The notes under the pieces are model-generated. The model ran no database searches and was not told the origin of the DNA. It saw nothing but the letters and a program-made list of their open reading frames with translations. DNA of 64,000 bases from a phage: assembly GCA_038314665.1 (NCBI GenBank), contig GCA_038314665.1_3677.1; one strand, written 5' to 3'. The translations under genes were made by a program, and so were the position numbers. Shown here piece by piece: positions 8,810 to 62,467 of this stretch (positions within the stretch are counted from its first letter, which is position 1; every line of letters starts with the position of its first letter).

Positions 8810-9073
8810 ATGAAACGTCTTGATCAGCTTAAACTAGTTCAGTACATGGCCTACAAAGTTCTTGAAGTCCAAAAAGGTAGCAAAAAAGAGGTTTGCGAGA
8901 AAGCATATAAGATCTTTACCCGTAAAAAAGATGATTGGATGTTACGCCAGACTAAAAAAGCCGATATCCTGGGGTACCTGGAAGAAGAGATCCGACTTGA
9001 AGAGCAAGAAGAGATCCGCCGCAGTGAGGCAGATTATCAGGCAGCCTGGGAAAACTGGATGAGTAACAAATAA
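8810..9073 (+). CDS. hypothetical protein (87 aa)
   Basis: ORF with RBS AAAGAGGTAAAC and hairpin GGGCCGGGAGGCCC in the leader. Confidence 0.55.
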   Translation: MKRLDQLKLVQYMAYKVLEVQKGSKKEVCEKAYKIFTRKKDDWMLRQTKKADILGYLEEEIRLEEQEEIRRSEADYQAAWENWMSNK

Positions 9074-9140
9074 TACAACAAGTTGCACGATCAGGGGGCA
9101 ATAAAGCCCCTTGATCACATAAAAATTATGCTATCCTTGG

Positions 9141-9169
9141 TTGACAAGGATCGGCAGTTTTGCTATATT
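9141..9169 (+). promoter_or_regulatory. sigma70-like promoter (TTGACA-N17-TATATT)
   Basis: upstream of the CDS at 9219. Confidence 0.6.
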
Positions 9170-9218
9170 CTTTTTTGAAGGGAAGTTGTAAGAAAATTAA
9201 CTAAGAGGTAAAAACACC

Positions 9219-9638
9219 ATGAACATTAAATCTAATAATCCGGCATATAGCTTTGATAACGCTTTTTGTCACGGTCCGGCGGCGAAAGGATTCGAAATCG
9301 ATGGTAAACTAATTATTGTCAATGTTGACGGGGAAGAGGTTGCAGTATATCCGGTGGCAGACGTAAAAAGCCGTTTACAATGCCGCATTGATGTTACCGC
9401 CTATCAGCTTGATCCGGTCCGCATAGTTGCCCTGGTCCTGGAAGAAGAAATTAAAGCCATGCACCATAGCAACAGGTTTATTGGTGACGCTCAGGATAAT
9501 ATGAAGGTGTGCCGCCATAAAGTTAATGAAGTGCTTAAAGAGTACGGTTATAAAGATCTGATGATCAAACGTGAGGAAAAATTCCGCTACCGTAACGACC
9601 TGGCAAATCGAATCTATGAAATATACGAATCATTATAA
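9219..9638 (+). CDS. hypothetical protein (139 aa)
   Basis: ORF with AAGAGG RBS; last gene of the plus-strand early block. Confidence 0.6.
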   Translation: MNIKSNNPAYSFDNAFCHGPAAKGFEIDGKLIIVNVDGEEVAVYPVADVKSRLQCRIDVTAYQLDPVRIVALVLEEEIKAMHHSNRFIGDAQDNMKVCRHKVNEVLKEYGYKDLMIKREEKFRYRNDLANRIYEIYESL

Positions 9639-9656
9639 TTTCTTAACTAAACTATC

Positions 9657-9685
9657 AGGGGCTTTAAAAGGCCCCTTTCTTTTTG
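9657..9685 (+). terminator. rho-independent terminator
   Basis: GGGGC-TTTAAAAG-GCCCC hairpin followed by TTTCTTTTTG. Confidence 0.7.
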
Positions 9686-10292
9686 TCTGTATTTCTCCTA
9701 CCACAAACGGCCCCACCTGGCAAGTGGAATAATTGACTAGCCATCAATCCCACACACTGTACAAACATACATGTAAAATAACTATTGCATAATTTTTCAT
9801 TGTGTGGTAGCAGGGCCATTTTTACCCGTTTTCTCTCTCAAAATTGCACGTAATGCCGCTATTGCACAAAATTTAACCTGATGCATATCTTCAATAGCTT
9901 GTCAACAACTAAAAATCTTTATAAGTCATACACTTACACACTCACAAAAGCGTGTTCTACGTGAAAAATCGAGTATAACTATAGCCGCCAGATCTCAGAA
10001 TTTACGTACGTTCACCATTCTATAGTCTGCTAAGTATTTATTCCAACCATAGAATAATGGAATAGTCAATACCTGCATAAAATAATTATTCGTATAAACT
10101 GCATAACATAAATCAGCTTAGGTGTCAACATTTTTCGTAAACAGCCTGAAATTATCACGGTGAGTTATCATAAACAGAGAAATCTTTAGTCGTCTAATGT
10201 TTACTGTACATTACTATACTTACTGGAATCATTAGATGACTAAGAGAAAGATAAGAAATAATTAACAATACAATTATTTTATATGTAACAAT

Positions 10293-10483
10293 AAGGCAAC
10301 TATGCAAACGAATGGCATGGCGCGACGGAGTCGCGACATAATATAAAAGCAGTAACCATCACCCCCGTGATAGTTTGTCTGCAATCTATTAATCAGATCA
10401 TAGTTGCCTTGTATTTAGTTAATCATGACATAACAAGCAAGGCAACTATAGATCTGCTAATAGTTGCCCTGCTTTTATATTAT
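10293..10483. repeat. nested inverted-repeat / hairpin cluster
   Basis: GGCAACTAT and ATAGTTGCC alternate four times; 15-bp inverted repeat ATAATATAAAAGCAG / CTGCTTTTATATTAT; palindromes CGCGAC..GTCGCG and GTGACTAAAGGTCAC; flanked by 20-bp direct repeats ATGCAAACGAATGGCATGGC (10303) and ATGCAAACGAATGTCATGGC (10609). Confidence 0.6.
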
Positions 10484-10629
10484 GTCATAGAAACACCCGA
10501 AGGGGTGACTAAAGGTCACCTGGCATAGCCAGTGAAAGATTATTAACCTGCTAATTGTCAGCTTATTGGCTGTTAGCTTGTCAATTGTTAACTTGTTAAT
10601 TGTTATCATGCAAACGAATGTCATGGCTT

Positions 10630-10800
10630 ATCATTTTTGTGTAAACAGTCAATCATGTAAATGATAAGTATGTGAACAGTTATCCATGTAAACTATTAGA
10701 TATGTAAACTATCGGTTATGTAAACAGTAAGAGCGTGAACAGTAAAGGGAGTGAATAGTAATAGCGTGAATAGTGACAGCGTAAACAGTCAGGCATGTCA
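10630..10800. repeat. tandem degenerate short repeats (ATGTAAAC / GTGAACAGT / GTGAATAGT units)
   Basis: at least ten units, roughly 11-14 bp period, visible by eye; non-coding. Confidence 0.6.
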
Positions 10801-11363
10801 ATTATGTTTAATGTGCCCAGTATGTCAAAGGTGTCATGTTATGTCACTATTGTGTCAGACAAGTTTTTCTCCTCTTTGTCAAGTGCTGCATGAAAAATTT
10901 ACAATCTGGTATGGTAGCATTTTTGCGGCCCTGTTTACATTCAGTTGTGTATGTATAATCCTTGTTGTGCGGGCGTTTGGACGTCTAGATGGTTGGAAGT
11001 CTGCAGGTCAATATCTAATCTATCGGCTGTTAACTATATCCCACACAAATAGTAAGAAATATAATTGTTATATGCGTAAACAGTAACTCATGTTATCAAT
11101 CCCTGTATGTATCGCCAGTGGTGCGCATAATGGGTATTATGTTAAATTGCCCGTAATGATAACTATTCTCACAATGATAGGTATTCTCATTCAATCCCAC
11201 AAGATAGGTTGCAAATGTTGTGCCACTGTGTGAACGGCCTCACCTATTAATTTGCCACACTGCCCCGATATTTGAGAATTGTTATAAGAATGAGAAGTAT
11301 TCCCATTTCGTCCGCCTGGCAGCACTCCAGTCGCTACCGCTTATGACAGGGCAGAGCTAGACC

Positions 11364-11512
11364 CTCTTCAGATATTTCTGGCTGACTCTTCAGGTCTGTG
11401 TGGGAAAAGCCAATCTCTCCGGCGGCGGGGAGGGGGTCAATTAAAAAATTTATGTGGTGTATGAAGCGCTCTTCAGGTAAGGCATGTATTATGGGATGAA
11501 ACCCTCTTCAGG
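11364..11512. repeat. cluster of CTCTTCAGG motifs
   Basis: copies at 11364, 11386, 11469 and 11504, with further copies at 11894 and 12544; interleaved G-rich GGCGGGGAGGGGGT (11421) and CCCGGCGGGGCAGGGG (11566). Confidence 0.5.
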
Positions 11513-12253
11513 TGATGATATTTGTGGGTGTGATATTTGCTGGAAAGTCAGATATGACGGGACTCCCGGCGGGGCAGGGGTAGTACAGACAGGGAAAATA
11601 TGGGGATGTAGTTGGGGAAATTGATCAGACAGGTGGAGTATAGTATATGTTACAAGTATGTTAAATAGAGAGGTTTAATATCTGTAAGATTTGTGTGTAA
11701 AATCAAAGACTTAAGTGGTGTTGTGGTATTTTCTATAAATAATTCAAGTTTAATAGGGAATATTTGTCAGAAAGGCAGGTTCAGGTTATTTAAAGTGGTA
11801 TTTCAGATGCATGTTTACAGAAGCAGGTAACCCCCCTCCCCCTTCGGCTACCATTCACCTTTTCCTCTGACTGGTACTTAAACACTTATTCAGACTCTTC
11901 AGGTTATCACCCATATATCATATGGCAGTGACTGGTGTCCTCCGGCCCCTCTTTCGTCACCCGTCCGCTTCGCCATGCTAATGCCATAGCCAGTGGTTCG
12001 GTTGTTCACCCTGTTCACTCAGGTGTATCTCCATACCCCTTCAAACCGAAGAGAACAGAAAACCCGAATTACTCGGTAAAAGAAAAGAGAAGAACTTAAT
12101 TTTATCAGGATAGGCAAGAATGTCAAGGCATGACTGCTCACTAAACAAGCAAACAGTCATGTGTGGGAGGTAAGTGATTGTGGTGGTAGGAAATTTAGTT
12201 GAAAGATGTGTTATGGGTGCTCCCAGCACTTTAGCCGGGCAATTAATTGTGTG

Positions 12254-12469
12254 TCAGTCCAGTGGTTCATCCCCTACTTCACTGAAATCGATGTTCATGG
12301 TCTCCTCCCAACCATCAATCTCAGCACCAGAGTAGAGATCTTTAGGACTTACTCCCAAAGCCTCAGCAACAGAGTCCATATTTAACACCTCTGGCAGGTA
12401 TGATTCATCGAATTCAAGGTAAATCAGGCCACGAGTGTTGTCAGCTCCACCAAATATTTCTATCTTCAT
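12254..12469 (-). CDS. hypothetical small acidic protein (71 aa)
   Basis: last ORF of the minus-strand array; acidic C-terminus. Confidence 0.5.
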   Translation of the reverse strand: MKIEIFGGADNTRGLIYLEFDESYLPEVLNMDSVAEALGVSPKDLYSGAEIDGWEETMNIDFSEVGDEPLD

Positions 12470-12590
12470 GAAATCTCCTCTGGAAATGAGAGTGTGAACA
12501 GGGTTTTATACGTCCCAATGCACAGGAATTATGCACGTTTGCCTCTTCAGGCCATGCTTTAGCATGAGGAACCTGTGTGGGCTCGGTGCT

Positions 12591-12896
12591 TCATAGTCTA
12601 CCACCCCTGAACTCTTCGTGCTCAGGCATAATAGAGAACCAGATAACTACGATGTCTTCCCACGTTAGGTCATCAGCCTCAGGATCTACCTGGAGTGAAG
12701 ATGGAGAATCTTCAGAATCGAAGTTTTCCTCTTGCACTGGCTCAGTCAAGGGACATACAGTCACTCCTTTGGATGTCTCTTCAGATGCATGTGTGTTTAT
12801 CATGTTCCACCCGTGAGTATTCCGGCAACAGCCGCTATGGACATAATGATCATCAGGATCACCACAAAAACCTCTGACAATGTTCTCATTGTGCAC
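12591..12896 (-). CDS. hypothetical acidic protein (101 aa)
   Basis: ORF only; start uncertain. Confidence 0.3.
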   Translation of the reverse strand: MHNENIVRGFCGDPDDHYVHSGCCRNTHGWNMINTHASEETSKGVTVCPLTEPVQEENFDSEDSPSSLQVDPEADDLTWEDIVVIWFSIMPEHEEFRGGRL

Positions 12897-13162
12897 TCCA
12901 TATTCTTCAGACTATGTGTGGATACTATCACTGGAGCGGTAATGTGTCAACAGAAACGCCGCGAGGGTTTGGTTAAAATCCGAGCGTATGGTGATTTGGG
13001 TCAAAACGGACGTGCGTTCTCGCTACGCTCGAAATAGAGAGTTGTTTGTAGAAAGCTCTTAAACGCTCTGTAATGAGATTATCTGTCCAAGGTATGCAAT
13101 CGTGCACCAGATAAAGAAAAGGACGCCACAGAGCGTCCTAGGTGTCTTAAATTTGATATTTT

Positions 13163-53908: not shown

Positions 53909-53983
53909 GCCCTGTTAGCTTAGTGGATAAAGCAGCGGCCTTCTAAGCCGTTGACACTGGTTCGAGTCCAGTACGGGGTGCCA
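53909..53983 (+). tRNA. tRNA-Arg (anticodon TCT)
   Basis: manual cloverleaf: acceptor GCCCTGT/ACGGGGT, anticodon loop CTTCTAA, T-loop TTCGAGT, encoded CCA. Confidence 0.75.
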
Positions 53984-54113
53984 AGTTCTTTTTAATGTAG
54001 CTTACTTTAGCAGAGTAAATCTTCGGCAAGTGGCGGTAACCACTTTACCGATACCTCATAGTTAGTGGTGAGAACACTAGCTATTTTAAAAAGAATTTAA
54101 ATATTAGTATTTA

Positions 54114-54201
54114 GGTGAGTTAATTCCGTAGGGGTAGCGGGGCAGACTGTAAATCTGTTATCATTGCGATTCGGGTGGTTCGACTCCATCACTCACCACC
54201 A
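54114..54201 (+). tRNA. tRNA-Tyr (anticodon GTA)
   Basis: acceptor GGTGAGT/ACTCACC, anticodon loop CTGTAAA, long variable arm, CCA. Confidence 0.8.
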
Positions 54202-54315
54202 AATTTATATTTTTAAATGCATAAATCATACAGATAATGGCATTGATATTTATCGTCGTTTATACTAGTCACTAACTGCTCGAAAATCAGTGTCATTATC
54301 AGTATAATTTATAAA

Positions 54316-54406
54316 GGAGGGTAGGGAGCAATGGTGCTCAAGCGGTCTTGAAAACCGTCCCATTGAGGATGACTCGATGATGGTTCGATTCCATTACTCT
54401 CCGCCA
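54316..54406 (+). tRNA. tRNA-Ser (anticodon TGA)
   Basis: acceptor GGAGGGT/ACTCTCC, anticodon loop CTTGAAA, long variable arm, CCA. Confidence 0.75.
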
Positions 54407-54504
54407 CATTGTTGACCTTGTAATTAAGCGAAAGCCGGAAGCAGAACCGGATTATCAAATGTTACAGTCGTCATCGCCGACTAGCAACATGGTCAACATA
54501 CTGA

Positions 54505-54603
54505 GCTAGGTAAGCCCTTTGGCAAGGGCGAGGATTTTTAATCCTGAAAATAGACGAGGTAGTCGTTGAATACATAGGTGGTTCGATTCCACCGCCTAGC
54601 ACC
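54505..54603 (+). tRNA. atypical tRNA-like gene (99 nt), anticodon possibly TTT
   Basis: acceptor GCTAGGT/GCCTAGC and T-arm GGTGG-TTCGATT-CCACC are clear; loop TTTTTAA on a short stem; about 30 nt between anticodon arm and T-arm. Confidence 0.4.
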
Positions 54604-54608
54604 TTTTT

Positions 54609-54684
54609 GCTGATGTAGCACAATTGGCAGTGCAATTGATTTGTAATCAATAGGTTGCAGGTTCAAGTCCTGCCATCAGCACCA
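54609..54684 (+). tRNA. tRNA-Thr (anticodon TGT)
   Basis: acceptor GCTGATG/CATCAGC, anticodon loop TTTGTAA, T-loop TTCAAGT, CCA. Confidence 0.8.
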
Positions 54685-54685
54685 A

Positions 54686-54760
54686 GGCCCTGTAGCTGGA
54701 AGGTTCAAGCAAGCGACTCATAATCGCCAGACGGTGGTTCAATTCCACCCAGGGCCACCA
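54686..54760 (+). tRNA. tRNA-Met (anticodon CAT; elongator Met or Ile2 type)
   Basis: acceptor GGCCCTG/CAGGGCC, anticodon loop CTCATAA, CCA. Confidence 0.7.
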
Positions 54761-54771
54761 AATGGTAAATA

Positions 54772-54848
54772 CTCCGCGTAGCTCAGCTTGGTAGAGCGCC
54801 TGATTTGGGATCAGGAGGTCGAGTGTTCGAATCACTCCGTGGAGACCA
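54772..54848 (+). tRNA. tRNA-Pro (anticodon TGG)
   Basis: acceptor CTCCGCG/CGTGGAG with C1-G72, anticodon loop TTTGGGA, T-loop TTCGAAT, CCA. Confidence 0.8.
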
Positions 54849-62434: not shown

Positions 62435-62467
62435 GGGGAGGGGGTTCTCCCCCTCCCCTTTTTATTT
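62435..62467 (+). terminator. rho-independent terminator
   Basis: GGGGAGGGGG-TTCT-CCCCCTCCCC hairpin followed by TTTTTATTT. Confidence 0.8.

Follow-up and report, generated by a model that had tools for sequence, protein, structure and literature searches.

A gene-free, repeat-rich gap between converging operons of a Vequintavirus genome as a probable genome-end and packaging region

What purpose could be served by 2.56 kb of phage DNA that holds several kinds of repeats and no credible gene? The question is posed by positions 9690 to 12250 (2561 bp) of a 64,000-nucleotide (nt) stretch of contig GCA_038314665.1_3677.1, hereafter the window, to whose positions all coordinates refer unless another genome is named. 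An earlier description made from the letters of the window (the sequence-only reading) had proposed that this region, lying where two blocks of genes converge, acts as a packaging signal or genome terminus, a second replication origin, a transcription termination zone, or a source of non-coding RNAs. Our analysis indicates that it is probably the genome-end region, or concatemer junction, of a phage of the genus Vequintavirus, comprising a direct terminal repeat (DTR) and flanking cis-acting DNA that would serve a T7-type packaging mechanism, and that it is also the end-point of the converging operons.

The region matches 122 phage records at 85 to 97% identity, every one of them from an rV5-like myovirus of the genus Vequintavirus, and no match outside this genus was found, sensitive blastn included. 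In 95 of the 122 records (99 in a more sensitive mode), 80% or more of the 2561 bp is covered by the best place. The flanking genes are homologous to those for gp159 and gp158 of phage rV5, which assigns the region to the terminal non-coding region of the genus. Its rV5 counterpart is the unannotated interval from 104017 to 106567, between gp159 (open reading frame [ORF] 164) and gp158 (ORF 163), and was drawn in the rV5 genome paper as a grey “non-coding” box without ORFs (Kropinski et al. 2013, PMC3606486). The two loci are 88 to 91% identical over 2.56 kb, depending on the BLAST mode, and they share the genes on either side and the converging arrangement of transcription units. However, the published label refers to the lack of ORFs only, and neither genome ends nor repeat systems are described there. 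The gene-free gap itself is thus an already known feature of rV5-like phages, which the sequence-only reading did not recognize. About 19 records named “UNVERIFIED Campylobacter phage” (GenBank MG0656xx), classified as Vequintavirus, are 92 to 96% identical to the region, which belongs to an Escherichia coli phage; the likely cause is an erroneous host label or contamination of the preparations. Wider relatives sought via the flanking 71-amino-acid (aa) protein were not found, this protein being restricted to the genus, and searches of the literature yielded neither transcriptomic nor packaging studies of the region.

The position of the genome ends is given by relatives. The record of phage Gotham annotates a repeat_region at 1 to 459 and again at 136567 to 137025, and both copies align at 93.9% identity, in minus orientation, to window positions 11316 to 10858, of which the window holds one copy only. 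The records of HdK5, YN3, and ECP2309, which come from different laboratories and countries (Germany and China), begin with the same repeat, and their right ends stop at the base that matches window position 10858. In these four relatives, all sequenced independently, the same sequence therefore stands at both ends of the record with fixed boundaries. Published sizes of the repeat are 459 bp for Gotham (PMC7471380) and 458 bp for EdH4 and HdK5 (PMC6563267). The DTRs of Gotham, HdK5, and EdH4 align to 10858 to 11316 at 94 to 95% identity and have identical end bases; they differ from the window copy in that the latter is single and internal, as in a collapsed, rotated assembly. The papers on these phages (PMC7471380, PMC6563267) report the length of the repeat and do not discuss the non-coding DNA on either side.

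We place the DTR at 10858 to 11316 because four relatives start at the match of 11316 and end at the match of 10858. By homology, the packaged DNA ends of the relatives lie at the two DTR boundaries, and we infer from them that the ends of this phage would lie at 11316 and 10858. Read in virion orientation, which is the minus strand of the window, the genome start at 11316 is GGCGGACGAAATGG and the end at 10858 is GAAAAACTTGTC / GAGGAGAAAAACTTGTC. The terminal repeat has been collapsed to one copy, and the window is therefore a rotated assembly that runs across the genome ends. From high to low coordinates, this concatemer junction consists of unique DNA from the right end (12250 to 11317), one copy of the repeat (11316 to 10858), and unique DNA from the left end (10857 to 9690), and both terminal operons are transcribed toward the genome ends. 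Among the roles first suggested, that of a packaging signal or genome terminus is the one to which this 459-bp repeat, located via four end-defined relatives, lends support.

Conservation changes sharply at both edges of the repeat. This was seen in an alignment of 17 genomes, consisting of the window, 14 GenBank phages, and two contigs from IMG/VR. When the viral contigs of IMG/VR were scanned for the left-terminus pattern, only two matched. Across this alignment the DTR has no gaps and 94 to 99% column conservation, and indel-rich arrays lie immediately outside. Directly beyond the right boundary (10857 and below) conservation collapses to an indel-rich zone, and beyond the left boundary a hypervariable patch occupies 11329 to 11360, with variability again near 11434. 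Hypervariability at the repeat edges would fit either tolerant binding arrays or recombination-prone ends. Both outer flanks are conserved and nearly free of indels, and the overall identity of the region is about that of the neighbouring genes.

Comparison with two other genera links these boundaries to a more distant set of genome ends. In KPP-1, a Mydovirus, a 514-bp DTR was determined from two-fold coverage and PhageTerm, and T7-type packaging was reported (PMC9862379). This DTR sits in an equivalent converging, gene-poor gap, and the record of phage KP12 is linearised at the start base of KPP-1. In PVP-SE1, a Seunavirus, the genes converge at the same place on a gap of 2.27 kb that lacks ORFs and is approximately 69% identical to the KPP-1 junction. 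Vequintavirus DNA can barely be aligned with either of these phages, yet collinear islands survive. Those that are invariant across the three genera are TGCYA/GRCGGAC (the slash marks the boundary that this island straddles) at the repeat start, and TTGTAAATTT and CTTGACA..GAG at its end, and a further collinear block persists inside the repeat. On the opposite strand, the end islands correspond to a sigma-70-like promoter, with TACAAT as its -10 hexamer and TTGTCA as its -35 hexamer; these hexamers are invariant in the three genera, and the 18-nt spacer is variable. In addition, clusters of CCTGAAG(AG) occur upstream of the repeat start in Vequintavirus, KPP-1, and PVP-SE1, in the same orientation and relative place, and the 1.4 kb preceding the DTR start contains 5, 3, and 4 copies of CCTGAAG in the three genera versus about 0.07 expected. 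On the basis of the homology to KPP-1 and of the conserved boundary islands, PVP-SE1 (NC_016071) is predicted to carry a terminal repeat of about 514 bp at approximately 117218 to 117731, inside its unannotated 2.27-kb gap.

If packaging is of the T7 type, replication would produce head-to-tail concatemers with one copy of the repeat at each junction. The terminase would recognise sequences within the non-coding flanks and cut at the boundary sequences, TGCYA/GRCGGAC at the start and TTGTAAATTT...CTTGACA...TTGTC/ at the end, and the repeat would be duplicated in the course of processing. The best candidate sites for the terminase or accessory proteins would be the arrays outside the cuts, of which the CCTGAAGAG cluster precedes the start and the GTAAACAGT array follows the end, although the roles of individual repeat arrays are ones that we infer. 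The invariant block at 11830 to 12206, with its promoter directed at the junction, is an additional candidate control element, and the region may double as a buffer in which the two terminal operons stop.

T7 divides these tasks between its two terminase subunits, the small one recognising PacB in the concatemer and the large one cutting at PacC (PMC9860248). The region described here resembles the T7 concatemer junction, within which those recognition and cutting signals lie, in having a short exact terminal repeat. Arrays of short repeats are also said to abut the outer sides of the T7 terminal repeat, and a T7 promoter near the right end reportedly points into the junction and bears on processing, so that the likeness would extend to the repeat arrays outside the boundaries and to the right-end promoter. 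However, the two junctions have no sequence similarity. The present one belongs to a myovirus with a 137-kb genome, its non-coding flanks are much larger (about 1.0 to 1.2 kb per side), and its promoters are of the host sigma-70 type.

The features in and beside the region are collected in Table 1.

Table 1. Positions of features in and beside the gene-free region of the window
Feature	Position	Strand	Basis or remark
Intrinsic terminator of plus-strand operon	9657-9676	+	AGGGGCTTTAAAAGGCCCCT then T-run; canonical
AT-rich conserved spacer	9700-10290		Gapless in 17-genome alignment; no codon-position bias
20-bp direct repeat ATGCAAACGAATGKCATGGC, first copy	10302-10321	+	Repeat search
Nested inverted-repeat cluster (152-nt hairpin or cruciform)	10335-10486		Repeat search, folding
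Cassette of three small hairpins, terminator-like	10487-10538	-	Not shared by all vequintaviruses
Short tandem TTGTYAA / 15-bp repeats	10571-10605	+	Vary between genomes
20-bp direct repeat ATGCAAACGAATGKCATGGC, second copy	10608-10627	+	Repeat search
Iteron-like array, GTAAACAGT-type units then RTGTCA units to DTR edge	10638-10857	+	Repeat search, alignment
DTR, 459 bp, single collapsed copy	10858-11316	-	Homology with end-defined relatives
Sigma-70-like promoter at right end of DTR	10876-10905	+	TTGTCA, 18-nt spacer, TACAAT
18-bp tandem repeat within DTR, 1.9 copies	11155-11189	+	Annotated as repeat_region in naswa and Alma
About 12 conserved bases (TGGCAGCACTCC), then hypervariable indel patch	11317-11360		17-genome alignment
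Four clustered CTCTTCAG(G) motifs (read as CCTGAAGAG in virion orientation)	11364-11512	-	48-196 bp upstream of DTR start
G-rich tract containing GGGGAGGGGG, length-variable	11420-11437	+	GGGGAGGGGG at 11427
Second G-rich tract	11565-11581		
Best-conserved block of region	11830-12206		377 bp; C-tract, CTCTTCAGG copy at 11895, hairpins, promoter
Terminator-like hairpin in invariant block	12064-12076	-	
Strong sigma-70-like promoter in invariant block, aimed at DTR	12099-12126	-	
Hairpin with 14-bp stem in invariant block	12129-12161	-	

On the low-coordinate side, the AT-rich spacer measures exactly 591 bp in each of the 12 matches listed, out of 120 matching records, even though 3 to 13% of its positions are substituted, and no ORF, RNA-structure signal, or repeat in it accounts for this constraint on length. 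The nested inverted repeats seen in the sequence-only reading are confirmed by a perfect 18-nt pair (10335 to 10352 and 10469 to 10486) and by a z-score of -9.8 when the cluster is folded as single-stranded DNA. Within the cluster, boxes of the 12-bp CAAGGCAACTAT type lie at 10400(-), 10438(+), and 10460(-), and a further copy with one base different lies just upstream at 10293(+). The 20-bp direct repeats that were said to bound the cluster exist, but the second lies about 120 bp beyond it, so that the bounding is approximate. Phages rV5 and A147 carry a 33-bp insertion at the apex of the cluster. Phage FV3 (JQ031132) has one ATGCAAACGAATGKCATGGC copy and lacks the 286 bp between the copies (window 10322 to 10607), the entire inverted-repeat cluster being gone, which could represent a clean deletion between the 20-bp repeats or an ancestral empty site. 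Segment 10322 to 10607 was considered as a mobile element resembling a miniature inverted-repeat transposable element and was rejected. It has a single copy in the window and none elsewhere in phages, and no other copies were present in 5,426 Escherichia coli genomes, the 52-bp hairpin cassette excepted; the FV3 allele is equally well explained by deletion between the 20-bp repeats.

That 52-bp cassette is 92% identical to non-coding DNA of three circular E. coli “plasmids” of 13.6 to 13.7 kb. One of them, NZ_CP035869.1, has matching patches at 10646 to 10697 (the cassette) and at 8896 to 8919, the latter a 24-bp patch that is 96% identical to the terminal repeat at window positions 11267 to 11290. 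These elements carry major capsid, tape-measure, and baseplate genes and have no annotated terminase or portal. Such an element could be a satellite that borrows the signals of a helper phage, or it could merely share a terminator module. The tandem units described earlier are present next to the DTR as nine copies of GT[AG]AA[CT][AT][AG]T between 10641 and 10789, at 15- to 16-bp spacing and at a 30-fold higher density than elsewhere in the window. The array is hypervariable among the 17 genomes, with 3 to 9 units in a segment of 133 to 237 bp.

On the high-coordinate side, the motif CTCTTCAGG, which the sequence-only reading counted six times, is enriched: the window contains eight copies, all on the plus strand, versus 0.68 expected. 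The count of six was loose, as four exact copies lie inside the region (11386, 11469, 11504, and 11895), one is a variant (CTCTTCAGA at 11364), and one exact copy lies just outside (12543). The copies at 11386, 11469, and 11504 are near-invariant across the 17 genomes. The complementary G-rich and C-rich tracts are likewise present, with the complement of GGGGAGGGGG at 11832 in a C-tract spanning 11831 to 11842. The idea that the G tract (11427) pairs over a long range with the C tract (11832) was considered and rejected, since the G tract varies and the C tract does not and there is thus no covariation. The same G-rich and C-rich words, which are 400 bp apart in the region, form a perfect intrinsic terminator elsewhere in the window, at 62435 to 62458 (GGGGAGGGGG-TTCT-CCCCCTCCCC followed by a T-run).

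At 11769 to 11830, the window, A147, and MiataMamis have an allele of about 60 bp that differs from that of the other 14 genomes and is a small mosaic replacement adjoining the invariant block. The 118 matching records all share at least 95% identity over the block itself, and 58 of them share at least 99%.

The absence of genes was upheld by tests of ORF conservation, codon position, Pfam, and PHROG. The longest ORF (111 aa, GTG start, 10751 to 11086) is intact in 2 of the 17 aligned genomes, and the few ORFs that are intact across most genomes sit within near-invariant DNA. No ORF of at least 30 aa in the region shows third-codon-position bias in the alignment. Variable columns at the three codon positions number 5/5/43 (9219 to 9638) and 6/3/21 (12254 to 12469) in the flanking genes, and 46/34/47 (9700 to 10290), 24/30/30 (10858 to 11316), 18/14/17, and 7/12/5 in four non-coding blocks. 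PHROG gave no match for the ten longest ORFs, and Pfam gave none for the eight longest. Gene calls by depositors are mutually inconsistent, with none in rV5, FV3, and typing phage 4 and unrelated mini-ORFs in others. The convergence of the gene blocks was also correctly described: the plus-strand genes end at 9638 and the minus-strand genes start at 12254. The terminator site that follows the plus-strand genes is annotated in Murica, Gotham, and HdK5 as well.

Several points weigh against the assignment of the region to genome ends and packaging. The ends of the phage from which the window comes are placed via relatives, and the right DTR boundary in Mydovirus depends on one study. In one paper (PMC13211470), PhageTerm results for a Vequintavirus are taken to mean headful packaging with partial permutation. 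Moreover, not all parts of the flanks are needed. The inverted-repeat cluster is dispensable because FV3, a viable phage, lacks it, and the precise iteron array is not required because its copy number varies 3-fold between near-identical phages.

The region might instead be chiefly a zone for the stopping and insulation of transcription, in which intrinsic hairpins act together with Rho-dependent termination on the C-rich minus-strand RNA of 11317 to 11600 and the repeats have no role. Two operons converge here, the plus-strand operon ends in a canonical terminator, and 6 terminator-like hairpins are found versus 3.2 expected. In KPP-1 and PVP-SE1, some of the CCTGAAG copies make up hairpin loops of terminators (GGAGCC-TGAAGNG-GCTCC plus a T-run), and the rV5 authors expected a bidirectional terminator between genes 163 and 164, although they found none (PMC3606486). 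However, termination does not need 2.5 kb. It also leaves unexplained why 377 bp should be at least 95% identical in every one of the 118 matching records, why conservation should change exactly at the DTR edges, and why the cut-site islands should be shared across genera. We regard termination as the chief role as possible but somewhat improbable. A termination zone is real and compatible with genome ends at this locus, but it is insufficient to account for the pattern of conservation, and the suggestion of such a zone is only partly supported.

T7 origins lie in non-coding promoter and AT-rich DNA, and the region could likewise be mainly a replication origin, in which the GTAAACAGT iterons bind an initiator, 9700 to 10290 melts, and the large hairpin acts in priming or assembly, with the DTR merely adjacent. 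The nine iterons adjoin DNA of 35% G+C, much as tandem short repeats lie beside AT-rich DNA in known iteron origins (lambda ori, P1 oriR, and plasmid origins), and the cumulative GC skew peaks in the region. The exact length of the spacer in the 12 listed matches, the recurrence of the GTAAACTGT motif in the KPP-1 and PVP-SE1 junction regions, and the T7-like rV5 replisome, with its primase-helicase and family A polymerase (PMC3606486), also favour this role. Here, however, the iterons range from 3 to 9 among phages that are at least 90% identical, their 15- to 16-bp spacing lacks helical phasing, the adjacent genes include no initiator, and the hairpin cluster is deleted in FV3. The turn in skew, which in rV5 occurs at 104425 to 105475, coincides with the switch of transcription direction, by which the rV5 authors explained it (PMC3606486). 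Iterons and AT-rich DNA are thus present as in an iteron-type origin, but with a variable copy number and without an adjacent initiator, and we consider an origin unlikely. The evidence for the “second origin” of the sequence-only reading is circumstantial and is offset by the variation of the array and by a skew that follows transcription.

Still less likely is a main role in producing non-coding RNAs, from the DTR promoter (start at about 10912, plus strand), from the promoter at 12126 to 12099 (start at about 12091, minus strand) through the invariant block, or from both. Two sigma-70-like promoters do lie in conserved DNA, that of the DTR with hexamers kept in three genera around a variable spacer, and the best-conserved part of the region is non-coding. 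An Rfam scan of 9000 to 13000 gave nothing at an E value of <0.1, and no match in the region; the best score was 22.5 bits against gathering thresholds of 41 to 45 (Rfam 15), with both hits outside the core. The candidate transcripts fold with z-scores of -1.8 and -1.2, and among 150-nt tiles on both strands none fell below about -2.5 outside the inverted-repeat cluster, the only place with a structure signal. The sequences vary too little for covariation, and the G and C tracts do not covary. A minus-strand promoter-array-terminator RNA (10828 to 10490), which might act as a repeat-RNA decoy or in an antitoxin-like manner, was rejected, as its parts are gained and lost independently among genomes and are not conserved as a unit. 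The proposal of non-coding RNAs was thus not borne out. ARAGORN, run on the whole window, found no tRNA in the region; elsewhere, at 54505 to 54603, inside a tRNA cluster at 53909 to 54848, it reports a tRNA of 99 nt that has a four-base anticodon (atcc) and no assigned identity.

Decay of former genes into pseudogenes without present function, for which the scattered mini-ORFs annotated by some depositors might speak, is extremely improbable given conservation at least equal to that of the neighbouring genes, long gap-free stretches, the absence of codon-position signal and family matches, and the same gene-free gap in three genera. The relatives carry this gap in place of intact genes, and the sequence-only reading, for which intact genes in them would have meant decay, is not refuted on that point.

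Returning to genome ends and packaging, the conserved parts of the flanks may, more speculatively, jointly form an undescribed packaging and end-duplication apparatus that serves a large group of DTR myoviruses (Vequintavirinae) and has no sequence relationship to its T7 counterpart. Its parts would be the CCTGAAGAG cluster, the TGCYA/GRCGGAC and TTGTAAATTT-N-CTTGACA islands, the 377-bp block with its promoter, and the iteron array beyond the right cut. We put this forward tentatively, as an idea that is on balance unlikely to hold in full. Under it, transcription into the junction may be needed for processing, and the E. coli plasmid-like elements that bear capsid genes and share patches with the region may exploit the apparatus.

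Overall, the region is real but largely ordinary, probably a genome-end and packaging region whose terminal repeat lies in an already known non-coding box, and the new content is modest, consisting of a finer map of its conserved and dispensable parts. Placing the ends at 11316 and 10858 permits the correct orientation and annotation of this genome, with the start at GGCGGACG and the 459-bp repeat added at the right end, and awareness of the gap keeps gene callers from adding spurious mini-ORFs, as in several GenBank records. Experiments can also be aimed at features of the comparative map, from the cut-site islands and motif clusters to the invariant block and the hairpin cluster that FV3 does without. 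Vequintaviruses are common candidates for therapy and biocontrol, and defined ends and packaging signals matter for their engineering and bear on transduction risk and on the design of packaging-competent vectors.

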